IMG/VR virus record: IMGVR_UViG_2778261463_000017
Span: 1-9,315 of that record
Source: a virus
Taxonomy: Duplodnaviria > Heunggongvirae > Uroviricota > Caudoviricetes
Strand: one strand, 5' to 3'
DNA length: 9,315 bases
Part shown: in pieces, positions 1 to 9,315 of the stretch
Layout of the letters: every line of letters starts with the position of its first letter
Position numbering within the stretch: position 1 is the stretch's first letter
Made by a program: the position numbers and the translations under genes
Notes under the pieces: model-generated
Databases searched by the model: none
Seen by the model: the letters and a program-made list of their open reading frames with translations, nothing else
Told to the model about the DNA's origin: nothing

Positions 1-1242
1 ATGGCGAGAAAAACACACCCATTAACCACAGTGCAGATCAAAGCAGCCAGACCAGCGCAAAAGGAGTACACCCTGCAGGACGGCGGAGGGCTTTTTCTCC
101 TGGTCAAACCGTCTGGATCAAAACTCTGGAGATTTTCCTACTACCGACCATCGGACAAAAAAAGAATATTGCTGAGTTTTGGATCGCTTGAAGATGTTTC
201 CCTGGCTGATGCCAGAAAACGCCGTAGCGAGTACAGGACGTTAATCAGTGCCGGAACTGACCCGCAGGACCACGAGAGGCAAAAAAGAGAGACAGAGGCC
301 CGAAGACAAGGGAACACGTTCGAAAATGTGGCGGCGGCATGGTACCAGGTGAAAATCAGCCAGAATCTGGCCCCCAACACGATTAAAGACATCTGGCGTT
401 CGCTGGATAAATATGTATTCCCGTTCATCGGCAACACGCCAATAGATACCCTCACCGCCCGAAGGTTCGTTGAAGTGCTTACCCCCATCAAGGAGCGCGG
501 CAACCTGGAAACACTCAAGCGGGTTTTACAGCGCGTTAATGAGGTAATGGATTACGCCGCCAACAGTGGGCTGATTGATGCCAATCCGGCTATGAATGTG
601 CGTAAGGCGTTTCCCTCACCTGTAAAAAAACATATGCCAACAATCCGCCCCGAACAGCTGCCCGAGCTTATGCAGGCTTTATCAGTATCGGCAACAGAAC
701 GGCAGACCAGATTACTGATTGAATGGCAGTTACTGACCGTAACCCGTCCCGCCGAAGCGTCATCAACGCGGTGGGATGAAATCAACCTGGACGCGAAGCA
801 ATGGACGATACCTGCCGGACGCATGAAGATGCGCAGGGATCACGTTATCCCGCTTTCCGGTCAGGCTATGGCGGTGCTGGAGGCCATGAAACCAATCAGC
901 CACCACCGCAATTACGTTTTCCCAAGTCTGAAAGACCCACAGCAGCCGATGAACAGCCAGACAGCTAACGCAGCATTGCGGCGTATGGGATTCGCTGGCG
1001 TGCTGGTGTCTCATGGATTACGCGCCATATTCAGCACAGCAGCGAACGAGGAAGGATTCGAGCCGGACGTAATAGAGGCGGCACTTGCCCACGTCGACAC
1101 CAACGAAGTTAGACGGGCATACAACCGGAGCAACTACCTGGAAAAACGTGTAGTACTTATGCGCTGGTGGGGTGAATTTGTGGAAGCCGCAGCAACCGGA
1201 GTGACCATAGCCAGTGGTAAAAGGGGTATCCGTGCGGTGTAA
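1..1242 (+). CDS. int: P4-type tyrosine integrase (site-specific recombinase)
   Basis: 413-aa ORF starting MARKTHPLT...; the N-terminal block (KLWRFSYYRP...) and overall length are typical of P4/CP4-57-like integrases as I recall them. Full length from first base of window to TAA at 1240-1242. Confidence 0.9.
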   Translation: MARKTHPLTTVQIKAARPAQKEYTLQDGGGLFLLVKPSGSKLWRFSYYRPSDKKRILLSFGSLEDVSLADARKRRSEYRTLISAGTDPQDHERQKRETEARRQGNTFENVAAAWYQVKISQNLAPNTIKDIWRSLDKYVFPFIGNTPIDTLTARRFVEVLTPIKERGNLETLKRVLQRVNEVMDYAANSGLIDANPAMNVRKAFPSPVKKHMPTIRPEQLPELMQALSVSATERQTRLLIEWQLLTVTRPAEASSTRWDEINLDAKQWTIPAGRMKMRRDHVIPLSGQAMAVLEAMKPISHHRNYVFPSLKDPQQPMNSQTANAALRRMGFAGVLVSHGLRAIFSTAANEEGFEPDVIEAALAHVDTNEVRRAYNRSNYLEKRVVLMRWWGEFVEAAATGVTIASGKRGIRAV

Positions 1243-1355
1243 CTGTACAAAAAACCAGTACAACCAGTGCAAACCATGCTAAACCATCGTATAATCGCCT
1301 ATCTCCTCAACAGACAAGGAAAAACCCGACTCATGAGAAATCGAGATTTATTGAA

Positions 1356-1598
1356 ATGGTCTGGCACGAAAAATCATCCAATGTCTGCGGTGAAGGGCTG
1401 CAACTGGCGTTAATGGCAAATCGTGAATTCTGGTCAACATACGATCCGGAAGACAAATCAACAGCCCCCACAAAACACGAGGTAGTCAGTTTTTTACGCT
1501 CGCGTGGCGCATCGAAAAATCTGGCTGAAAGCATCGACAAGGTGCTGAGGCCCACCAGCCTTAAATGTGGTGGGCGACCTAAGAAGTGGAAACGGTAA
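1356..1598 (+). CDS. small hypothetical protein (start uncertain; ATG at 1416 is an alternative)
   Basis: 80-codon ORF with no clear Shine-Dalgarno, but it is followed within a few nt by a hairpin plus T-run terminator, which suggests it is a transcribed unit. No recognisable family. Confidence 0.35.
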   Translation: MVWHEKSSNVCGEGLQLALMANREFWSTYDPEDKSTAPTKHEVVSFLRSRGASKNLAESIDKVLRPTSLKCGGRPKKWKR

Positions 1599-1603
1599 TC
1601 ACA

Positions 1604-1634
1604 ATAGCGGCCCCTTGCGGTCGCTATTTTTTTG
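1604..1634 (+). terminator. rho-independent terminator
   Basis: Stem ATAGCGGCC / GGTCGCTAT around a CCTTGC loop, followed by TTTTTTT (1627-1634), directly after the stop at 1596-1598. Confidence 0.6.
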
Positions 1635-1666
1635 CAAAAAGAAAGCGTAATCAATGAGATAAAAAA

Positions 1667-1703
1667 CAGTGAGTACCGTTTTAAAACGGTGAGTACTGTT
1701 TTT
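1667..1703. promoter_or_regulatory. operator-like palindrome with flanking direct repeats upstream of alpA
   Basis: Perfect 16-bp palindrome ACCGTTTTAAAACGGT (1675-1690) embedded in a tandem direct repeat GTGAGTAC(C/T)GTTTT, about 65 bp upstream of the alpA start. Confidence 0.4.
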
Positions 1704-1767
1704 CCCGCCCTGCCCTGTTTTACCGTATTTATCACCGGAATACGCCGGATTAACGAGGTAAAACACG

Positions 1768-1974
1768 ATGGAAGTAATCAGAAAAATTCTTACCCGTCAG
1801 GAAGTAAAAAATATTCTGCGCATCAAGGCAGACAGTTCGCTACAGGACATGATCAACGCCGGAAAATTCCCGAAAGGCTTCAAAATCGGTCTGCGCCGTG
1901 TTGGCTGGTATGAAGATGAGGTGCAGGCCTGGTTGAAAGAACGCGAGGAAGAAGCGCGCGGAACGGCTGCGTAA
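1768..1974 (+). CDS. alpA: AlpA-family prophage transcriptional regulator (small HTH protein)
   Basis: 68-aa protein MEVIRKILTRQEVKNILRIKADSSLQDMINAGKFPKGFKIGLRRVGWYEDEVQAWL, a classic AlpA/phage-AlpA signature; GAGGT Shine-Dalgarno 8 nt upstream. Confidence 0.85.
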   Translation: MEVIRKILTRQEVKNILRIKADSSLQDMINAGKFPKGFKIGLRRVGWYEDEVQAWLKEREEEARGTAA

Positions 1975-2121
1975 TGGTGTGAGGTGTAACGCAATGAACA
2001 TAACAAAAAGCGCCCCGTTGCCGGAGCGCCCTTGTGAACAATTAACCTGCTGCGAAAAAAATGGATCAGTGCAGGGGAATTATATCAACCGTGTGACGAA
2101 GCGCCACAATTGCCGGATAAC

Positions 2122-2153
2122 AGGCAAAACAAAGGCCACCTGCTACGGTGGCC
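2122..2153 (-). terminator. candidate rho-independent terminator for the reverse-strand repressor gene
   Basis: Perfect 7-bp stem GGCCACC / GGTGGCC (2134-2140, 2147-2153) with a 6-nt loop; on the minus strand it is followed by TTTGTTTTG. Lies about 100 bp downstream of the stop at 2257. Confidence 0.4.
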
Positions 2154-2256
2154 ATTCGACACAAGCTACACGTTATCCCCAACGCAAGAGAGATGATTAC
2201 TATGCCGTGATTACATCCGGTTGGCAATGTGATCAGTGTGCTGGCTTGCTGGTGGG

Positions 2257-2562
2257 CTATTCCTGCTCTTTGGCTTTGCGCCGCTGGAGTTCTTCACGCG
2301 CAACGGCGACGAGTTGCCCGATCTCCTCGGCAGCTTTGACACCGATTTTTTCCACCTGCGCCAGTGCATCGAGCGAAGAAACCAGGGGATTTTCTCCTCT
2401 TCCTTCTGCCTGGCGGCGGGCGATCTCACCACGCATGGCGGTTACTATGAATCCGGCGTTGCTTTCGCCGTCCAGTTTTACGGATTCCATGCCATCAAAA
2501 GCATCATGTGGGATACGAATTGAAATCTGTTTTGATTTGTCGTTGATAGTGTTTTTTGCCAT
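2257..2562 (-). CDS. putative ribbon-helix-helix DNA-binding protein (candidate island repressor)
   Basis: 101 aa from MAKNTINDK...; the segment KQISIRIPHDAFDGMESVKL...NAGFIVTAMRGEIARR fits a beta-strand/helix/helix RHH pattern, followed by a charged helical tail. GGAGA Shine-Dalgarno 6 nt before this ATG. The longer 2257-2601 start is rejected because it has no spacing to the SD. Confidence 0.55.
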   Translation of the reverse strand: MAKNTINDKSKQISIRIPHDAFDGMESVKLDGESNAGFIVTAMRGEIARRQAEGRGENPLVSSLDALAQVEKIGVKAAEEIGQLVAVAREELQRRKAKEQE

Positions 2563-2584
2563 GTGCATTCTCCTAAACAAAATA

Positions 2585-2660
2585 TGTGATTCAGTATACA
2601 CAAAAAAGAATCACAAAAAATACTTGACCTGTGATTCAGTTGAATTTAATTTAAATCACA
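2585..2660. promoter_or_regulatory. divergent promoter/operator region between RHH gene and icd-like gene
   Basis: Two inverted-repeat pairs TGTGATTCAG...GAATCACA (2585-2615) and TGTGATTCAG...AAATCACA (2630-2660); a -35-like TTGACC (2624-2629) with TAATTT 17 bp downstream, overlapped by the second palindrome. Confidence 0.5.
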
Positions 2661-2685
2661 CCTCAGTAAGAGGATGTAAACGACA

Positions 2686-2719
2686 ACGCCCCGAACTGTT
2701 TGCGGCAGTAGCGGGGCGT
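2686..2719 (+). other. stable hairpin in the icd leader (candidate structured regulatory RNA element)
   Basis: 8-bp GC-rich stem ACGCCCCG (2686-2693) / CGGGGCGT (2712-2719) with an 18-nt loop containing an inner CTG/CAG stem; no T-run follows, so it is unlikely to be a terminator. Confidence 0.3.
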
Positions 2720-2755
2720 CTAACCACCAACGATAGCGAAAGTATCGAGGTAGCT

Positions 2756-2950
2756 ATGAGAAATCATACCACACACCCGCAAGGGCGGGACTCGCACAAC
2801 CTGAATAAATACATCTGGCGTTTTATCGCCCTGAGCACGGCACAACCGCGCGTGATTCACATCGTGGCCACCAGCGAACAGGAAGCGCGTCAGCAATCTC
2901 CTGATGGCTGCGTGATGGTATTGGCCTCCAGATTTCATCATCGCTGTTTG
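2756..2950 (+). CDS. Icd-like (host cell division inhibitor-like) small protein; 3' end undefined because the frame has no stop until 3988
   Basis: ATG at 2756 with GAGG Shine-Dalgarno; MRNHTTHPQGRDSHNLNKYIWRFIALSTAQPRVIHIVATSEQEARQQ resembles Icd-like proteins of P4-like elements as I remember them. Downstream of ~2950 the same frame becomes Cys/Arg/Ser/Phe-rich and un-protein-like, so the end given here is approximate, not a stop codon. Confidence 0.45.
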
Positions 2951-3132
2951 TTTTTTGTCTGTCTCTCCTCGGGGTATGGGGTTGTGCCGTTCCAGCGTAT
3001 GCGGGGCCGTTCACTGATGAAGCGCTCAAGCGGGAAATTATCGGATGGCGCGGGGGGCCGTACCCGTCGTTCCCGCCTCCGCTGGCGTACCACGCTGGCT
3101 TCGGTAATTTCCCCTGATTCGTTTATTTTCAT
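2938..3132 (-). CDS. small Arg/Pro-rich protein, paralogue A of a three-member mini-gene family
   Basis: 64 aa (MKINESGEITEASVVRQRRRERRVRPPAPSDNFPLERFISERPRIRW...); strong GGAGGT Shine-Dalgarno 8 nt upstream of ATG; shares the RRERR...PP.P...FPLE.FI..R.R pattern with the ORF at 3376-3546. Confidence 0.3.
   Translation of the reverse strand: MKINESGEITEASVVRQRRRERRVRPPAPSDNFPLERFISERPRIRWNGTTPYPEERQTKNKQR
3014..3033. repeat. dispersed direct repeat copy A (CTGATGAAGCGCTCAAGCGG)
   Basis: One of three copies of CTGATGAAN(3)CNNNAGCGG; 17/20 identical to copy C and 15/20 to copy B. Confidence 0.5.
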
Positions 3133-3175
3133 AAAGAGTTACCTCCGTGCTCATCTGCTCTGGCGTTTTCTGTTT

Positions 3176-3195
3176 CTGATGAAGACTTACAGCGG
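3176..3195. repeat. dispersed direct repeat copy B (CTGATGAAGACTTACAGCGG)
   Basis: 162 bp downstream of copy A (a multiple of 3); the most diverged copy, with a stop in the minus-strand reading. Confidence 0.45.
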
Positions 3196-3207
3196 TAGCG
3201 GCGTATC

Positions 3208-3324
3208 TTATTTTAAGATTTGGTTTAATTTCTCGTGTCTGGCTTTAATGACGGCGCGTAATAATATCTGTCGCTGCTTTGTGTTTACGTCCAGAACTGT
3301 GGGGGATAATATGGATTTGTTCAT
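3208..3324 (-). CDS. short ORF (38 aa), possibly a truncated paralogue B of the mini-gene family
   Basis: MNKSILSPTVLDVNTKQRQILLRAVIKARHEKLNQILK; AGGTGA Shine-Dalgarno 5 nt upstream of ATG; stops just before repeat copy B. Uses AT-rich codons (ATA, TTA), which weakens the call. Confidence 0.2.
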   Translation of the reverse strand: MNKSILSPTVLDVNTKQRQILLRAVIKARHEKLNQILK

Positions 3325-3375
3325 GGTGCTCACCTGTAATGCATTGCGTCGTGATGCCTCATATCACGGCGGCGG

Positions 3376-3546
3376 TTATCGTTTTGTTCGGATTCGTCCC
3401 CTGATGAAATCCTCAAGCGGAAAATGTTCAGGGCGAGGTAATTCAGGAGGGACAGGGTTATTACTCATGCGCTCACGTTCCCTTGCGGCGCGTGCAGCAT
3501 TCAGCTTTTGCAGGAGCACATCAAACGGCACCCCCTTATCATTCAT
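3376..3546 (-). CDS. small Arg/Pro-rich protein, paralogue C of the mini-gene family
   Basis: 56 aa (MNDKGVPFDVLLQKLNAARAARERERMSNNPVPPELPRPEHFPLEDFIRGRIRTKR); G-rich Shine-Dalgarno-like run before ATG; C-terminal half aligns with the ORF at 2938-3132. Confidence 0.3.
   Translation of the reverse strand: MNDKGVPFDVLLQKLNAARAARERERMSNNPVPPELPRPEHFPLEDFIRGRIRTKR
3401..3420. repeat. dispersed direct repeat copy C (CTGATGAAATCCTCAAGCGG)
   Basis: 225 bp downstream of copy B (a multiple of 3); differs from copy A at three adjacent positions only. Confidence 0.5.
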
Positions 3547-3700
3547 GGTCCCCCCTGTATATCCGTTGTTAACTGATGGTTACAGGTGCATTTTTCGCAC
3601 AAACTATTTAATCAACACATCCGACCACATTATCAGAGAGCCGGAATATACAGGGGCAATAATCCCGCATTTGCTGGCCTACGCACAGCTTACCGCTGAT

Positions 3701-3988
3701 ATGGCACTGAATGAGGCCAAAGCCATCCTGATTGCTGATTGTGAATATGGGGTTATGCGTGATGATCGTTTTAATGCCCTGAAACAGGAATTTGATGGCA
3801 CACCGGAAGATACAGATATTGCGCTGTTATGTGTTGCTGACATGGTAAAAGCTGCATGTTTTTTACTGGAAACCGCCGAACATTCAGGAACGGGTAGCGA
3901 TATTCTCAATATTGCGTCGGACTATGCTGAATATGTGGCAGAGGCGCGTTACAGAAGAAAATTCCAGGAGGTGGTTAGCCATGAATAA
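3701..3988 (+). CDS. hypothetical acidic protein, first gene of the replication operon (true start may be upstream)
   Basis: 95 aa (MALNEAKAILIADCEYGVMRDDRFNALKQEFDGTPEDTDIALLCVADMVKAACFLLETAEHSG...) with protein-like composition, unlike the upstream part of the same frame. No convincing Shine-Dalgarno at 3701; the stop overlaps the next gene's start. Confidence 0.5.
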   Translation: MALNEAKAILIADCEYGVMRDDRFNALKQEFDGTPEDTDIALLCVADMVKAACFLLETAEHSGTGSDILNIASDYAEYVAEARYRRKFQEVVSHE

Positions 3989-4181
3989 TCATGAAGCGCA
4001 CTTACCTGTAGTGCTTAATGTGCCATCTGATTATACGGGGCGCGTTTTGATATTCCTGGATAAAGGGAAAGTGAAATCGCAATGCCGCCTTAGAAATAAT
4101 GAGGTTATTGGTTCTCTGGCTTTTTTTTCTGAAGCCTGTATTCGCGCCGGAATAAAGCCGGAATCACTGACAGGAAAATAA
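3981..4181 (+). CDS. hypothetical small protein
   Basis: 66 aa from MNNHEAHLPVVLNVPSDYTGRVLIFLDKGKVK...; strong AGGAGGTGG Shine-Dalgarno; ATG overlaps the upstream stop (ATGAATAA), indicating translational coupling. The ORF-track start at 3912 is rejected. Confidence 0.5.
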   Translation: MNNHEAHLPVVLNVPSDYTGRVLIFLDKGKVKSQCRLRNNEVIGSLAFFSEACIRAGIKPESLTGK

Positions 4182-4185
4182 AACC

Positions 4186-4485
4186 ATGAAAAAGAAAAAT
4201 TCTGGCTTTACTGCCAGCGGCCCCGCTCGGCCTGAAATCCGTCCCGGCGATATTTTCCGTGATAACTACGGCGGTACGGTAACGATTAAAGGCGTGGCAG
4301 AACGGCGCATCACTTACCGCCGTGATGGCTACGAATATGACTGCGTGATGCCTGTTTATCAGTTCCGGCGTGATTTTTCTCTGGTACAGGCAGCGCCCCG
4401 CAGTAAACCAACCAGCAGGGAGAAAGCACGCGCCAATATTCAGAAGATGAAAACCATGATTAACGGATTCAGGGATAAAAAATGA
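4186..4485 (+). CDS. hypothetical basic protein (prophage-associated small protein of unknown function)
   Basis: 99 aa (..GDIFRDNYGGTVTIKGVAERRITYRRDGYEYDCVMPVYQFRRDFSLV..); AGGAAA 8 nt upstream; stop overlaps the primase start (ATGA). Family identity not established. Confidence 0.55.
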   Translation: MKKKNSGFTASGPARPEIRPGDIFRDNYGGTVTIKGVAERRITYRRDGYEYDCVMPVYQFRRDFSLVQAAPRSKPTSREKARANIQKMKTMINGFRDKK

Positions 4486-5897
4486 AACTGGCACCGAACT
4501 TAAAAAAACAGCCACACAACAAAATGACCGAAGTCATTATTTTTGCAGGTAGTGATGCCTGGGCGCACGCAAAACAATGGCAGGAACAGGACGGGCGACT
4601 TGCTGGCGATAACGTCCCGCCAGTATGGCTGGGAGACAGTCAGCTTGACGAACTGGCAGACCTGAAAATTATCGACGATGGTCGCTATTGTGTCCGGCTG
4701 TACAAGGCAGGCCACATCAAGCCATCAAATATTAATGCCATCGGGCAAAAACTGGCGGCGGCAGGTGTACGGGATGCGAGTTATTACCCCGAGGGAATGC
4801 ACAGCCAGAAGCGGGAGGAATGGCGCGACTACCTGCAACGGATCCGCGAACAGGCAGAGCGCGGGGAAATACTTACTGATGAGCAATACAGCCAGCGAAA
4901 AACCACGCTACCCATGAGCATTGGATCTGCAGGATACGACACACAGCTTGATTATGTCGTTAAGGGCGTGATTCCGGCTAATTCATTGTGCAGCACATAC
5001 GGTGCGAGCGGTTCCTATAAATCATTCCTTGCGTGTTCCTGGGCGTGTCATGTTGCCACGGGGCGCCACTGGGGAGGCCGCAGGGTGGCGCATGGTTCGG
5101 TGATGTATGTTGTCGGTGAAGGTGGCATTGGTGTCCCCCGTCGTATCAAGGCATGGGAAATCGTTAATGATGAACGGGTGAAAAATCTGTACCTGGTAAA
5201 CCGCCCGATTTTTCCGGCAGCCCCGCTTGATGTTGATGAAATGGTTATCGCTTCCCGCCAGGTTGAACGGGAAACGGGTAAACCGGTACGCATGATTATT
5301 CTGGATACGCTGGCGCGTTGCTTTGGCGGTAATGATGAAAATGACGCGCGGGATATGGGGGCGTTTATCCGTGGATGTGACGACCTGAAACGACGCACAG
5401 GGGCCACGGTGCTGGTGGTCCACCATTCCGGCAAGGATGAAACAAAGGGGGCGCGTGGTTCCAGTGCATTTCGTGCATCTCTGGACGCTGAATACCGTAT
5501 TCGCCGAGAAGGTGCAGACAGTAAAGCCCTGGTTATATCCTGCACCAAAATGAAGGACGCGGAGGAACTGAAAGAGGCCGCCTACGATTTACGCGTGGTG
5601 GAGCTTTTTACCGACGCTGACGGGGAGTTAATCACGTCGCTGGTGGTGGTGGATAAGCCGCGCACTCCCGTTGAACTGGAGCGCATCGAGGAGGCAGGCA
5701 ACAAGACGGAAAACCATACCGCGCTATGGCAGTGCATCAGAACGCGAACAGCACACGGGGAGGCGTGCACTATCGCCCTTCTCCGCGACGATATGAAAAA
5801 GCTGGGGTATGAGATGAAGCACTTCCGGCGCTGGCTGTCCAAGCTGGAAAAAGACGGCGTGATTTGTGTCGATGGGGATGATGTTTACCCACTGTAA
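4482..5897 (+). CDS. replication initiator: primase-like N-terminal domain fused to a RecA-like AAA ATPase (PICI pri-rep type)
   Basis: 471 aa; Walker A GASGSYKS, Walker B-like MIILDTL, and an HHSGKDETKG block typical of RepA/DnaB-like AAA ATPases; AGGGA Shine-Dalgarno 6 nt upstream; iteron array immediately downstream. Confidence 0.85.
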   Translation: MKLAPNLKKQPHNKMTEVIIFAGSDAWAHAKQWQEQDGRLAGDNVPPVWLGDSQLDELADLKIIDDGRYCVRLYKAGHIKPSNINAIGQKLAAAGVRDASYYPEGMHSQKREEWRDYLQRIREQAERGEILTDEQYSQRKTTLPMSIGSAGYDTQLDYVVKGVIPANSLCSTYGASGSYKSFLACSWACHVATGRHWGGRRVAHGSVMYVVGEGGIGVPRRIKAWEIVNDERVKNLYLVNRPIFPAAPLDVDEMVIASRQVERETGKPVRMIILDTLARCFGGNDENDARDMGAFIRGCDDLKRRTGATVLVVHHSGKDETKGARGSSAFRASLDAEYRIRREGADSKALVISCTKMKDAEELKEAAYDLRVVELFTDADGELITSLVVVDKPRTPVELERIEEAGNKTENHTALWQCIRTRTAHGEACTIALLRDDMKKLGYEMKHFRRWLSKLEKDGVICVDGDDVYPL

Positions 5898-6098
5898 AAA
5901 GTGGGTAGTAAAAGTGGGGAGAGTGGGGAATTTAACAAAATTGAAACATAATTCCCCACTTTCCCACCTGTATACATCCAAAAAAGTGGGGAGTAAAAAA
6001 CGCAATGAAAAACAAAGCATTAGATTCACTCAAAAAACGAGGTGGGGAGCAAGTGGGGAATTTAAAAAGTGGGGAGCAAAAGTGGGGAGTGGTGGGGA
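5898..6098. repeat. iteron-type replication origin (GTGGGGA repeats flanking AT-rich spacers)
   Basis: About ten copies of GTGGG(G/T)A in direct orientation (5901, 5914, 5923, 5986, 6032, 6043, 6069, 6082, 6092) and two in inverted orientation (5952-5968), with an 18-bp unit AGTGGGGAATTTAA(C/A)AAA present twice and an A-rich segment 5993-6030. Confidence 0.7.
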
Positions 6099-6350
6099 AT
6101 GAACAGAAAAACCAGAGATAAGACAGCGCCAAAATATAAAGCGTTAGACATGACAGAGCACGCCTTAAAGGTGGCAATCAGAACGATAGACCGCCACGCC
6201 GGAGAAGGATACGCGAAAGCACATCCCGAACTGATAAGTGCATTCATGACCACAGCGGCGGCAAACTTTGCCACGCTGACAGAACGGGAGATTGCCGAAG
6301 CAGAACAGGTAACAACCATCAATGTTAAAACCGGAGAGCAGACAGCATGA
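6099..6350 (+). CDS. hypothetical small protein (start uncertain)
   Basis: 83 aa from MNRKTRDK...; stop overlaps the ssb start (ATGA). The putative start sits inside the last iteron, so the start is insecure. Confidence 0.45.
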   Translation: MNRKTRDKTAPKYKALDMTEHALKVAIRTIDRHAGEGYAKAHPELISAFMTTAAANFATLTEREIAEAEQVTTINVKTGEQTA

Positions 6351-6757
6351 CAGCACAGATAGCGGCTTACGGGCGGCTGGTGGACGACCCGCAGACAAAA
6401 CAGACCAGTAAGGGTACACCGATGACGCTGGCGCGTATGGCGGTATCTTTACCATGCGGCCAGGCACAGGACGGACAGGCGACGTTATGGTTATCGGTCA
6501 TCGCATTTGGCAAACAGGCCGACTTTCTGGCTAAACATCAAAAAGGCGACGTTGCCAGCGTATCCGGCACGATGCAGGTCAGCCAGTGGACCGGACAGAA
6601 CGGGGAAACGCGGCAGGGTTATCAGGTCATTGCAGACAGTGTAATCAGTGCCCGTGCTGCACGTCCTGGCGGGAGCAGACGCACAACCACAGGCACACAG
6701 GGGAATAAGCCACCAGCGGGAGGCGATGACCCTTACGGTGATGATATTCCGTTCTGA
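6347..6757 (+). CDS. ssb: single-stranded DNA-binding protein (SSB)
   Basis: 136 aa; OB-fold-like N-terminus (GRLVDDPQ..., WLSVIAFGKQADFL, QWTGQNGETRQGYQVIADSV), a Gly/Pro-rich linker and the acidic C-terminal tail ending DDIPF characteristic of bacterial/phage SSBs; GGAGAG Shine-Dalgarno. Confidence 0.8.
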   Translation: MTAQIAAYGRLVDDPQTKQTSKGTPMTLARMAVSLPCGQAQDGQATLWLSVIAFGKQADFLAKHQKGDVASVSGTMQVSQWTGQNGETRQGYQVIADSVISARAARPGGSRRTTTGTQGNKPPAGGDDPYGDDIPF

Positions 6758-6767
6758 GGGGGTGACG

Positions 6768-7040
6768 ATGGTACATGACCGGATAGCGGAGGAACTGGAG
6801 GCGAAAGGATTTTACCGGAGGGCGGCGGCGCGATGGGGTGAAGTTATGTGGCTGGTGAGCACTGACAAGGAGCGCGAACAGGTGGCAATGCGACGGCTGG
6901 AATGTTCCCGGAAGGCACAGAGGCCACCGGAGCCGCCGGATGATTTAGGCGCTCTGAAAAGGTCAGTTAATCGCACTGAAAAACAAATGGGGATAGCTGG
7001 TATTGGCAAAGCAATATGGCGCAACTACCCGCAGAAGTGA
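6768..7040 (+). CDS. PerC-family transcriptional regulator-like protein
   Basis: 90 aa from MVHDRIAEELEAKGFYRRAAARWGEVM...; this N-terminal motif resembles PerC/Pch-type prophage regulators as I recall them; GAGGGGG Shine-Dalgarno. The ORF-track start at 6648 overlaps ssb and is rejected. Confidence 0.55.
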   Translation: MVHDRIAEELEAKGFYRRAAARWGEVMWLVSTDKEREQVAMRRLECSRKAQRPPEPPDDLGALKRSVNRTEKQMGIAGIGKAIWRNYPQK

Positions 7041-7046
7041 GCACAC

Positions 7047-7071
7047 AGCCGGAGCAATCCGGCTTTTTTAC
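7047..7071 (+). terminator. rho-independent terminator ending the replication/regulatory operon
   Basis: Hairpin AGCCGGA-GCAA-TCCGGCT followed by TTTTTTA, 7 nt after the PerC-like stop. Confidence 0.65.
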
Positions 7072-7081
7072 GCCTAAAAAA

Positions 7082-7114
7082 AGCCCGATAAGGTCACAGG
7101 GGGCTTATCGGGCT
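7082..7114. terminator. second hairpin, possibly a bidirectional terminator
   Basis: 11-bp stem AGCCCGATAAG / CTTATCGGGCT flanked by AAAAAAA upstream and TTTTG downstream. Confidence 0.4.
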
Positions 7115-7196
7115 TTTGTATACGAGGTTTTTTATGGTGCACTGACACACATGATCGGGATAATCATTTCATAATTTGCAACGTAACTCAATATTG

Positions 7197-7224
7197 TTGC
7201 GCAAAATGCAATCATGATTATAAT
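7197..7224 (+). promoter_or_regulatory. candidate sigma70 promoter of the capsid operon
   Basis: TTGCGC (7197-7202), 16-bp spacer, consensus TATAAT (7219-7224); the -35 lies in a palindromic TTGCGCAA. Confidence 0.45.
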
Positions 7225-7228
7225 CAGG

Positions 7229-7246
7229 ACTGGATGAACATCCAGT
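7229..7246. promoter_or_regulatory. operator-like palindrome just downstream of the -10
   Basis: ACTGGATG-AA-CATCCAGT: 8-bp perfect inverted arms with a 2-nt centre, starting 5 bp after the TATAAT. Confidence 0.4.
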
Positions 7247-7280
7247 TATGATTTTTTAAGTCAAAGAGGAATTTCTGACT

Positions 7281-7487
7281 ATGGCAGAAGAGAAAAAAGG
7301 CGGGGTGACGGTCTACATAAGCCCCGACATCGTGGAGGCGCTCAAGGAACGCCACCAGCAGAATGTAAAAGCAGGCATTGCGGCAGGACTTGATCCGCTG
7401 GCGATGGTTGAGCCGTCAACAGGCTGGCAGGTGCGCACCTATTTACGTGCGGCGCTGGGTATCAATCAGGTTCACGGAGGTGAATAA
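7281..7487 (+). CDS. small hypothetical protein, first gene of the capsid operon
   Basis: 68 aa (MAEEKKGGVTVYISPDIVEALKERHQQNVKAGIAAGL...); AGAGGA Shine-Dalgarno; its TAA overlaps the capsid gene ATG by one base (TAATG). Confidence 0.5.
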   Translation: MAEEKKGGVTVYISPDIVEALKERHQQNVKAGIAAGLDPLAMVEPSTGWQVRTYLRAALGINQVHGGE

Positions 7488-8542
7488 TGACAGGCAAAGC
7501 AACGGCACTTACAACTAACCAGCTTTTCGCGTACCTGAATCGCGGGGATATTGCGGATTTTAAATTCAGCCCTCTGTTTACCACGCTGTTTTTCCCGAAC
7601 GTGGCGACCTTCAACACCCAAAACATCATGCTGGACACCCTGGACATTGAAGAGGTTACGATGTCAGCGTTCTGTTCGCCTATGGTGGGTAGTCAGGTCC
7701 AGCGCGATAAAGGGTACGAAACCAGCACGATTAAACCCGGCTACATGAAGCCAAAGCACGAAATCGATCCAACAAAGACCATCATGCGCATGGCTGGAGA
7801 AGATCCGGCACAGCTTAACGATCCAACTTACCGCCGTATGCGCCTGATTACTGGCAACATGCGCCGCCAGATAAACGCCATTAAGGCGCGCGTGGAATGG
7901 CTGGCGGTGAATGCGGTAACGACCGGAAAAAACATCATTGAGGGCGAAGGCATAGAACGCTATGAAATCGACTGGAAAATACCGGAAAACTGCATCATAC
8001 AGCAGGCCAGTGGTAAAAAATGGTCCGAGCAGGATAAAGACATGCACGACCCAATCTATGACATCGAGCTTTATGCTGATCAGGCAGGTTGCCCCGCCAA
8101 CGTCATGATTATGGGCGGTGAGGTATGGCGCACATTACGCAGCTTTAAAAAATTCCGTGAACTGTACGATCTTTCGCGTGGCTCAGAATCCGCCGCCGAG
8201 CTGGCCTGTAAAAACCTGGGCGAAGTGGTGAGCTTTAAAGGCTATCTTGGTGATCTGGGCCTTATCGTCTATTCCGGCAAATACACTGACAGCGACGGCA
8301 CCGAAAAATATTTCCTTGAGCCTGATTTGCTGGTCCTGGGTAACACCAACAATAAAGGGCTGGTGGCCTATGGTGCGATTATGGATCAGGAAGCGGTAAG
8401 AACGGGCGCAACGCAAAACATGTACTACCCGAAAAACTGGATTGAGGACGGCGATCCGGCGATTGAGTACGTGCAGACGCACAGCGCACCGCAGCCGGTA
8501 CCGGCAGATATTCGCAAATTTGTTACCGTCAAAATTGCTTAA
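7487..8542 (+). CDS. lambda gpE-like major capsid protein (HK97-fold MCP family)
   Basis: 351 aa; colinear similarity to lambda gpE as I recall it (KFxPLF..LFF near the N-terminus, PGYMKPKHE, RRMRLI..NMR, KWSEQDK, RSFK, GSESA, VSFKGYLGDLGLIVYSGKY, VLGNT, YPKNW..GDPA); strong GGAGGTG Shine-Dalgarno. Confidence 0.85.
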   Translation: MTGKATALTTNQLFAYLNRGDIADFKFSPLFTTLFFPNVATFNTQNIMLDTLDIEEVTMSAFCSPMVGSQVQRDKGYETSTIKPGYMKPKHEIDPTKTIMRMAGEDPAQLNDPTYRRMRLITGNMRRQINAIKARVEWLAVNAVTTGKNIIEGEGIERYEIDWKIPENCIIQQASGKKWSEQDKDMHDPIYDIELYADQAGCPANVMIMGGEVWRTLRSFKKFRELYDLSRGSESAAELACKNLGEVVSFKGYLGDLGLIVYSGKYTDSDGTEKYFLEPDLLVLGNTNNKGLVAYGAIMDQEAVRTGATQNMYYPKNWIEDGDPAIEYVQTHSAPQPVPADIRKFVTVKIA

Positions 8543-8553
8543 CGGGGGATTCT

Positions 8554-8889
8554 ATGGACGCTCCATACATTGAGTTATTTTCAGGCAGCCAGCAGGTATC
8601 CACGACGCTGGTACATTTTGCCGCTGATGCTGGCGTTATTCAGGAATTTACCCCGCTGATGCTGGCAGACAATGGCGAGTTTAAGGCGTGGGATGGTCAG
8701 GAATCTGGCAAAGCTGTTTATCTGACTTCGCACCCCGTGGACACGTCAAAGCAGAAATCAGCACAGTGTTACAAAACGGGGATATTCAATATTGCCGCCG
8801 TTAACTGGCCTGATAGCGTCGACACCGATGCGAAAAAATGCGCCGCCTTTGCGGGTTCCGGCGTATCCGTTCAGCCGCTGGCCCGATAA
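8554..8889 (+). CDS. lambda gpD-like head decoration protein
   Basis: 111 aa; PLMLADNGEFKAWDG, YKTGIF, VNWPDSVDTDAKKCAAFAGSGVSV parallel the gpD blocks PLMLD..AWDG, YKSGTF, WPEA..ETKKRTAFAGTAISIV. Confidence 0.7.
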   Translation: MDAPYIELFSGSQQVSTTLVHFAADAGVIQEFTPLMLADNGEFKAWDGQESGKAVYLTSHPVDTSKQKSAQCYKTGIFNIAAVNWPDSVDTDAKKCAAFAGSGVSVQPLAR

Positions 8890-8901
8890 GCAGGGGGAAC
8901 G

Positions 8902-9315
8902 ATGGCAACGAATGAAAGTATCATGACGCTACCGCTGGCGAGTAAATTTAAAGCCGAAGCGCGGGCAATGGCTGACAGAGGTTTATCAACCTACGAGGCC
9001 ATACACCGACTAAACAAACTGGAAGAACAGGACAAGCCGCGCGCTGATGCGATTATGGCGCTTCATGAATCTGACGACTACCAGCCGCTGTTACGTGCAA
9101 TGGCTAACGTGCCTTGTATCGATGTTGGTACGGCTAAAAGCATCCTTAGCATGACCATAGAGCAGGAACGCCCGAAGGTTGCACCAGAGCTTACTTCAGC
9201 CTTTGAAAACTTTATGGACATGCACAGCCCGAAAGCCGTATCAGCTGGCATGGCATACGATGGCAGAAACCCGGGCGATGACGGCGACATCGATCACATA
9301 CTGAAAACCATCTGA
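8902..9315 (+). CDS. hypothetical protein downstream of the decoration gene
   Basis: 137 aa with AGGGGGAA Shine-Dalgarno, ending TGA at the last bases of the window; composition is protein-like (charged, helical N-terminus). Function not recognisable. Confidence 0.55.
   Translation: MATNESIMTLPLASKFKAEARAMADRGLSTYEAIHRLNKLEEQDKPRADAIMALHESDDYQPLLRAMANVPCIDVGTAKSILSMTIEQERPKVAPELTSAFENFMDMHSPKAVSAGMAYDGRNPGDDGDIDHILKTI

Follow-up and report, generated by a model that had tools for sequence, protein, structure and literature searches.

Within the satellite DNA analysed here, a stretch of 9,315 nucleotides (positions 1 to 9,315 of the IMG/VR virus record IMGVR_UViG_2778261463_000017; hereafter the window), a G+C-rich hairpin lies at 2686-2719 in the leader of an icd-like open reading frame (ORF) that resembles kil of satellite P4. 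We find that the fold of this hairpin is selected on the minus strand, opposite to the gene, and we favour the view that it ends a cis-antisense RNA of about 80 nt, which would repress translation of the Kil-like icd ORF. The initial annotation had proposed a processed sense-strand leader RNA, comparable to the C4 and CI RNAs of P1 and P4; that proposal did not hold, because the structure is selected on the opposite strand. The window forms part of a satellite related to P4 and the phage-inducible chromosomal islands (PICIs), and its DNA is identical to stretches of several Escherichia coli chromosomes.

The hairpin, ACGCCCCGAACTGTTTGCGGCAGTAGCGGGGCGT, comprises a G+C-rich stem of 8 bp (2686-2693 with 2712-2719) and a self-pairing 18-nt top. 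Its RNA fold was calculated at -20.3 kcal/mol (z = -3.76), and none of 200 shuffled sequences was equally stable, confirming the short G+C stem and structured loop described at the outset. The distance of 37 nt to the icd-like start codon was likewise given correctly: the ATG at 2756-2758, preceded by a Shine-Dalgarno (SD) sequence GAGG at 2747-2750, opens a 3'-truncated ORF on the plus strand (2756-2932), and residues 19-60 of this ORF match NCBIfam NF033153 (Icd-like), in agreement with the identity first assigned to the gene. Homologues were gathered by an exact-pattern scan for the invariant TCTAACCACCAACGATA just 3' of the hairpin, which yielded about 120 viral or satellite contigs. The two-tier hairpin, 33 or 34 nt in length, is retained in nearly all of them though its sequence differs widely. 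In an alignment of 79 distinct sequences (A2), with pairs counted on the specified structure, 93.9% of cells are paired and 9 pairs have changes on both sides; since these sequences come from related E. coli elements, the figures show conservation of pairing and not independent events. None of 500 shuffles matched the observed level in any of five pairing measures, and slid controls were 32-60% paired.

The strand that folds can be read from the imperfect pairs. Across the 79 homologues, 244 of the non-Watson-Crick cells in the two helices are G.U on the minus strand, as against 14 that are A.C there and would be G.U in a plus-strand RNA; these 14 all sit at an alignment slip. Among the relatives, the hairpin segment has a mean folding energy of -22.2 kcal/mol on the minus strand versus -16.9 kcal/mol on the plus strand. 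The same asymmetry is found in a second, diverged class of leaders, which we call type-2 (the second copy in locus L012, together with loci L063, L123, L128, L131, L135 and L144), with values of -28.5 to -32.9 kcal/mol for the minus strand versus -17.5 to -23.2 kcal/mol for the plus strand. Neither a DNA palindrome nor a plus-strand RNA element predicts an asymmetry of G.U pairs, and on this comparative evidence the hairpin fold is selected on the minus strand.

Read on the minus strand, the hairpin has the appearance of a terminator. One closing G.U pair extends the stem-loop to 2685-2720, followed by a T-rich tail at 2677-2684, and the 3' end of the RNA is predicted near 2678-2680. The absence of a T run, remarked upon in the initial annotation, applies to the plus strand, where the stem is followed by CTAACCACC, but not to the minus strand, where the run TGTCGTTT (2685 to 2678) starts with the T of the closing pair. 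The corresponding tails of relatives, such as TTTCGTCGTTT, TTGTTTTTTG, TTTGCTTTTTT and TTGCGTTTTTT, are clearer runs than that of the window. Over the 10 nt past the stem the mean T content is 5.1 on the minus strand versus 1.0 on the plus strand, and the tails are non-homologous, coming from unrelated promoter regions. A hairpin-plus-tail discriminant of the d'Aubenton-Carafa form, used solely for comparing the two strands, was above zero on the minus strand in 76 of the 79 copies but on the plus strand in none. All genes to the right of the hairpin are plus-strand genes in typical relatives, so that nothing else there needs a terminator. We regard the hairpin as most likely the site at which an antisense RNA encoded in cis undergoes rho-independent termination.

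The predicted antisense RNA spans 2677-2757 on the minus strand, about 80 nt, and is composed of two adjoining stem-loops according to its calculated fold and to a covariance model, R1. Folded on the minus strand, the 81-nt RNA reaches -34.2 kcal/mol (z -4.3) and forms two adjacent stem-loops, compared with -26.6 kcal/mol for the plus strand. Model R1 scored 91.9 bits at the window locus, on the minus strand only, and in the 69 loci searched it found one copy per locus (two or three in L012 and L063), always opposite the gene strand. The 5' stem-loop (SL1, or helix 1; 2721-2756), as predicted by RNAalifold, begins at the complement of the AUG, which is also the predicted start site, and lies directly 5' of the terminator hairpin; it contains an anti-SD sequence, CCUC (2750 to 2747), and a 7-nt loop (2742-2736). 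An A-to-G change at column 12 creates a G.U pair on the minus strand in 15 sequences, and type-2 leaders keep the stem-loop through a compensatory change of CGAUA/UAUCG to CGUUA/UAACG, with G.U pairs on the minus strand only and with the anti-SD located in a 7-nt loop. The search pattern had set the 3' arm of helix 1 in advance, so the support for this helix consists of these one-sided G.U changes and the type-2 comparison. The predicted RNA, from 2757 to 2677, covers both the SD (2747-2750) and the ATG (2756-2758) of its target.

Two parts of this structure are hypervariable between elements, namely the top of the terminator hairpin (2694-2711; A2 columns 50-70) and the 7-nt loop of SL1 (2736-2742; columns 21-27), while the stems and flanks around both are nearly invariant. 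These loops may determine the specificity of the antisense pair, or they may just be free of constraint.

A candidate promoter for the antisense RNA is found within the icd-like gene itself. An extended -10 element, TGgTATGAT, occupies 2763-2771 on the minus strand, within icd codons 3-6, and from it a start at 2755-2757 is predicted. Across relatives, T-15, T-12, A-11, T-10, A-8 and T-7 are invariant; variation occurs at -9 (TATGAT, TATAAT or TATTAT) and -16, with one change each at -13 and -14. Elements with unrelated N-termini have TATATT or TATAGT at the position of the box, and type-2 leaders have TATGCT. In the codon that faces the box the first base changes, giving His, Tyr or Asn, but the silent third base, which corresponds to A-11, never does. 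Codons 1-18 have 6, 8 and 2 variable sites at codon positions 1, 2 and 3, respectively, with a synonymous to nonsynonymous ratio of 3:16, whereas the values for codons 19-56, the Icd domain, are 14, 10 and 24, with a ratio of 33:31 (Fisher's exact p = 0.008 for the synonymous/nonsynonymous counts); codon 2 alternates between Arg and Leu among relatives. The codon-position pattern argues that the start of icd is under a nucleotide-level, promoter-like constraint. The block upstream of the -10 box, 2772-2809 or icd codons 6-18, hardly varies among relatives, be the ORF that follows icd-like or Ash-Icd, carries no coding signature and may be upstream promoter sequence. We infer that the extended -10 box drives transcription of the minus strand.

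A minus-strand ORF was also considered as the cause of the pattern in codons 1-18 and was rejected, as no open frame fits. Separately, a small G+C inverted repeat, CCCGCAAGGGCGGG, occurs at 2776-2789 in icd codons 7-12, corresponding to positions -20 to -33 of the antisense promoter proposed here. The repeat is conserved; its few variants are non-compensatory, and two wobble-compatible variants suit the plus strand.

Several observations weigh against an antisense RNA at this locus. For the window's own terminator, the discriminant is borderline (+1.3 versus a family mean of 13.8), the T tract, TGTCGTTT, is interrupted, and a simple terminator scan of the window did not report the minus-strand hairpin, because the hairpin top exceeds the loop limit of that scan. 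The -10-like element has no -35 box upstream of it, and since it overlaps conserved His-Thr codons, its conservation could be partly at the level of protein. Support for helix 1 is limited, its 3' arm having been set by the pattern of the homologue search, and the promoter, the ends of the RNA and its abundance are all predictions. The homologues are mostly E. coli elements and not independent lineages, and the hypervariability of the loops may reflect a lack of constraint instead of a role in specificity.

The hairpin also lies within a long open frame. A plus-strand frame of 669 codons (1979-3988) begins just past the alpA stop, with a GTG at 1979 and an ATG at 1994 that has a GAGG ribosome-binding site (RBS); it is in frame with the icd ATG at 2756, crosses the hairpin, promoter and operators, and runs antisense to ylcI/ynfO. 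Upstream of the icd ATG the open run has a median length of 267 codons over 113 related loci. Among the 79 distinct sequences, stops per 60 nt number 0.04-0.25 in the icd frame versus 0.7-2.4 in the other two, out to -555 nt, and this 5-10-fold depletion of stops is not accompanied by conservation of the encoded residues. The frame is kept open though the hairpin is 33 or 34 nt long; these 1-nt differences in length had been considered as proof that the segment is non-coding, an argument we rejected since other indels restore the frame. In P4, the long ORF eta shows translational coupling with the alpA homologue and has a constitutive promoter inside it, CI RNA and seqA lie within eta, and Kil corresponds to the C-terminal part of eta (PMC10111431). 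Transcripts that come from the upstream late promoter are kept from terminating by the translation of eta (PMC10111431). We interpret the 1979-3988 frame as a similar, eta-like 'translate-through' ORF.

The open frame bears on existing annotation. RefSeq records the icd-like gene of the window as a pseudogene without its C-terminus (2686-2932), beginning exactly at the first base of the hairpin. Where RefSeq places an Icd-like start at the hairpin or upstream of it, the choice probably follows the open eta-like frame, and the start is probably a mis-start. In locus L002 (2877-3281), the 135-aa Icd-like protein of RefSeq begins 67 codons upstream of an ATG that is preceded by an RBS.

As to the broader suggestion that icd is under RNA control of the P1 or P4 kind, the general idea agrees with the P4-like layout of the region and with the C4 and isrK matches of long-form relatives, but the hairpin itself does not qualify as a C4- or CI-type RNA. 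Scanned with Rfam 15 at gathering thresholds, the whole window gave no match. At E<=10 the covariance-model scan proposed in the initial annotation gave no C4 (RF01695, clan CL00128), c4-a1b1, isrK, sar or FinP match, at the hairpin or elsewhere in 2500-3000 and 1700-4500, but only chance snoRNA and miRNA matches; the same scan does detect C4 in L003, L012 and P4. A further check suggested at the outset was complementarity of the loop to sequences near the icd RBS. Within the target 2720-2830 the longest complement is 6 nt and the duplex energy of -13.2 is no better than that of shuffled loops (p about 0.25); moreover, an invariant RBS region stands against a hypervariable loop. Given neither an Rfam match nor loop complementarity, a C4/CI-type mechanism is unsupported for the hairpin.

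Long-form relatives show where the C4-type RNAs reside. In L003, L012, L036 and L065, the features named 'ash family' and 'Icd-like' are a single ORF of about 180 aa from a shared ATG (Pfam Phage_ASH). This Ash-Icd ORF has the same 18 N-terminal residues, then the Phage_ASH domain and then an Icd/Kil-like C-terminus, within which an internal start, MAT(I/V)PTL, resembles that of P4 Kil. Short Icd-like proteins look like this ORF minus its Ash part. Matches to isrK (seqA-like) and C4 (CI) lie 107-295 nt downstream of the same ATG in Ash-Icd relatives. In L003 they are at 3186-3262 (isrK-like) and 3287-3374 (C4), the arrangement is the same in L012 (9391-9576), and the same pair is found in P4. 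The window's short icd-like form is without the entire isrK/C4 segment and, judged by the long forms, has lost it. The C4 RNA of L003 pairs with its own isrK-like site (p 0.007) and not with the leader or hairpin (p 0.77), which, together with the short forms that have no C4, argues that the hairpin module is separate from the CI system. The module coexists with CI in long forms and stands alone in short forms.

From these elements a regulatory scheme can be proposed. Rightward transcription of the icd-like cistron would come from a sigma-70-like promoter at 2624-2652 (plus strand; TTGACC-17 nt-TAATTT), whose first hexamer is kept in relatives as TTGACG or TTGACC and which was missed by the simple promoter and terminator scan, being below its threshold because its -10 box is too weak for the scan rule. 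Judged by its sequence, this promoter would be the analogue of P4 PLE, with a leader start near 2660. Leftward transcription would start at about 2755-2757 from the extended -10 promoter inside icd codons 3-6 and would yield an RNA with a 5' stem-loop (2756 to 2721) and the terminator hairpin (2720 to 2685), ending near 2678. Complementarity would be complete between this RNA and the icd-like cistron's leader, RBS and AUG on transcripts from 2624-2652. Pairing would block translation initiation and provide a duplex substrate for RNase III. With translation uncoupled, the early transcript may, by analogy with P4, be exposed to premature termination upstream of the replication genes, and in the quiescent satellite both the toxic gene and the downstream replication genes would thereby stay silent. 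Transcription from the alpA promoter could escape this control, as ribosomes would pass through the region in the eta-like frame, as in P4.

Beyond this, we speculate that the locus may be a P4-like two-promoter immunity switch, in which the cis-antisense RNA replaces the CI/seqA system lost in short forms or supplements it, alpA transcripts escape by translate-through, and the hypervariable loops prevent cross-regulation between co-resident satellites (up to 6 copies per genome). We offer this larger scheme tentatively, as a possibility with the balance of probability against it.

A minus-strand terminator need not belong to a dedicated small RNA. It could stop stray leftward transcription, for example from 2938-3546, before the divergent promoters and ylcI/ynfO, or it could attenuate a second leftward promoter of ylcI/ynfO. 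The strand and terminator evidence fits such a function equally well, the antisense promoter is itself a prediction, and to the right of the hairpin the window has small ORFs on the minus strand. Typical relatives, however, have only plus-strand genes on that side. Moreover, a second conserved stem-loop adjoins the terminator and begins at the predicted start site, the -10-like box is retained in diverged N-termini, and codons 1-18 are constrained at the nucleotide rather than the protein level; we consider a stand-alone terminator unlikely, though it deserves some weight. It is improbable, in our estimation, that the hairpin acts in the plus-strand icd leader, whether as a processed RNA like C4/CI, as an element for processing or stability, or as a site of protein binding or antitermination. 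Its position in the 5' leader, its stable plus-strand fold in the window (-20.3 kcal/mol) and the C4/CI RNAs in the same operon of relatives would all suit that role, but no Rfam match was obtained, in relatives the G.U pairs of the minus strand become C.A mismatches in the plus-strand folds, the loop is hypervariable with complementarity to the RBS region at chance level, and the C4 RNA of L003 does not target the leader.

Two further explanations dispense with an RNA element. The segment might encode part of an N-terminally extended Icd/Eta-like protein, the hairpin being incidental: most relatives keep the frame open across the hairpin despite the 33- and 34-nt variants, and the Prokaryotic Genome Annotation Pipeline (PGAP) starts some Icd-like coding sequences upstream of it. 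Yet it is the base pairing that is conserved, with compensatory changes, and not the residues, and an open frame without a conserved product fits the P4 situation, in which translation and not its product matters, and is compatible with the antisense reading; we regard a coding explanation as very improbable. An inverted repeat beside a regulated promoter could also be a site acting as DNA, either the operator of a dimeric protein or a cruciform. To this we give next to no credence, as the half-sites vary freely while pairing persists, the mismatches are strand-asymmetric (244 versus 14) in a manner unexpected for a DNA palindrome, and real operator-like repeats are found elsewhere, at 2585-2665.

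Comparison with characterized systems places the proposed antisense RNA in familiar company. The immunity region of P4 has the same order of an alpA homologue, a long ORF just after it, an internal promoter (here a predicted one) and a Kil-like C-terminal cistron; in both, the long frame is kept open, and in long-form relatives the isrK (seqA-like) and C4 (CI) elements likewise lie inside the ORF. The P4 Kil protein of NC_001609 (MATTLTPSHPEFVFVFAAV...) is Icd-like and resembles type-2 N-termini. Forti et al., in 1999, are said to have made the original study of eta translation in P4. Unlike P4, the window has no CI or seqA, and a divergent ylcI/ynfO gene lies inside its long frame. Conversely, model R1 finds no match in P4, which has before the kil RBS a hairpin and T run on the sense strand, not the antisense strand, and the P4 regulator is processed from the leader, whereas that proposed for the window is a cis-antisense RNA.

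The sar RNA of P22 immI (mnt, arc, ant) is comparable in that it is a small cis-antisense RNA over its target RBS, ends at an intrinsic terminator, lies beside small-repressor genes and controls an antirepressor-type function. Its size and the position of its promoter, within the start of the regulated gene, were reportedly described by Liao et al. in 1987 and Wu et al. in 1987. The two RNAs differ in that there is no sequence or covariance similarity between them (Rfam sar is absent from the matches at E<=10), and in that sar targets ant in a phage whereas the window's RNA would target a predicted Icd/Kil-like or Ash-Icd ORF in a satellite. C4 of P1 and P7, acting on icd-ant, is again an RNA regulator at the icd ribosome-binding region, as is predicted here, but C4 is a processed sense-strand RNA that pairs with short target sites, and the window hairpin has neither a C4 or c4-a1b1 match nor loop complementarity. 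FinP of F-like plasmids, which targets the traJ leader, is an RNA of about 80 nt with two stem-loops, the second of which is its terminator, and is fully complementary to the 5' leader and RBS of its target. The predicted antisense RNA has the same architecture; the sequences are unrelated, with no Rfam match, the biological context is another one, and no FinO/ProQ-type gene was seen in the window.

The cassette is widespread. Of 5426 complete E. coli genomes, 1040 carry the segment 2712-2812, at 1255 places altogether and in as many as 6 copies per genome; the carriers include O157:H7, enteroaggregative E. coli (EAEC) 042 and strain 83972. In those genomes it is annotated as Icd-like, as ash or not at all, and never as an RNA feature. 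The cassette is also present in Edwardsiella hoshinae and Escherichia ruysiae (the only two loci from a protein scan of genome contigs) and in three plasmids; no copy was found in deposited phage genomes. Loci L012 and L063 have two antisense cassettes at least about 0.8 kb apart, one for each type of leader, and the two terminator hairpins of L012 are nearly identical. No description was found in Rfam or in the searchable literature (by sequence, by Icd-like with antisense, or by PICI with antisense RNA). Cis-antisense control of toxic or antirepressor genes is a known kind of regulation, of which this appears to be an undescribed member, located in a P4-type region.

If the proposed RNA is real, PICI/P4-like satellites would have a further, post-transcriptional level of control, and this control would act at an Icd/Kil-like or Ash-Icd gene that links satellite induction, host toxicity and helper derepression. 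It would also mean that immunity of the P4 type can outlast the CI RNA. For annotation, the RefSeq starts of Icd-like coding sequences that fall on the hairpin or upstream of it should be corrected as probable mis-starts, and the long stop-free frame offers a testable case in which translation matters and the protein product does not.

The gene content of the window is as follows. An integrase gene (1-1242) comes first, followed by alpA (1768-1974, plus strand; Pfam Phage_AlpA), a homologue of P4 vis that ends in its stop codon at 1974. A divergent, RefSeq-annotated gene of the YlcI/YnfO family (2257-2565, minus strand; NCBIfam NF041551, E 4.5e-18) likely encodes a repressor. Between ylcI and icd, operator-like inverted repeats TGTGATTC/GAATCACA (2585-2615) and TGACCTGTGATT/AATCACACCTCA (2625-2665) overlap the divergent promoters. 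The genes that follow the icd-like ORF encode, in order, a DUF4222 protein, an AAA_25/RepA-type helicase, SSB, PerC, capsid E and a head-decoration protein. A weak Rfam isrD match between alpA and ylcI (2128-2170, minus strand; 22.4 bits against a gathering score of 37, E 0.22) is probably due to chance.

In place of the 3' end of the icd-like gene, the window has about 0.8 kb without RefSeq annotation (2933-3700), a segment present in only 30 of the 5426 genomes and with no match in Pfam. It carries three direct copies of CTGATGAAnnnCTCAAGCGG (3014, 3176 and 3401) and small minus-strand ORFs at 2938-3132, 3208-3333 and 3376-3546, all in one shared minus-strand frame; two of the three have a common motif, FPLE(R/D)FI. 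The plus-strand eta-like frame is open across the entire segment despite these ORFs. Further downstream, two canonical intrinsic terminators follow perC (7049-7126), one being GCCGGAGCAATCCGGCTTTTTT and the other the bidirectional-looking AAAAAAAGCCCGATAAGG...CTTATCGGGCTTTTG, so that clean T runs are used elsewhere in the element.

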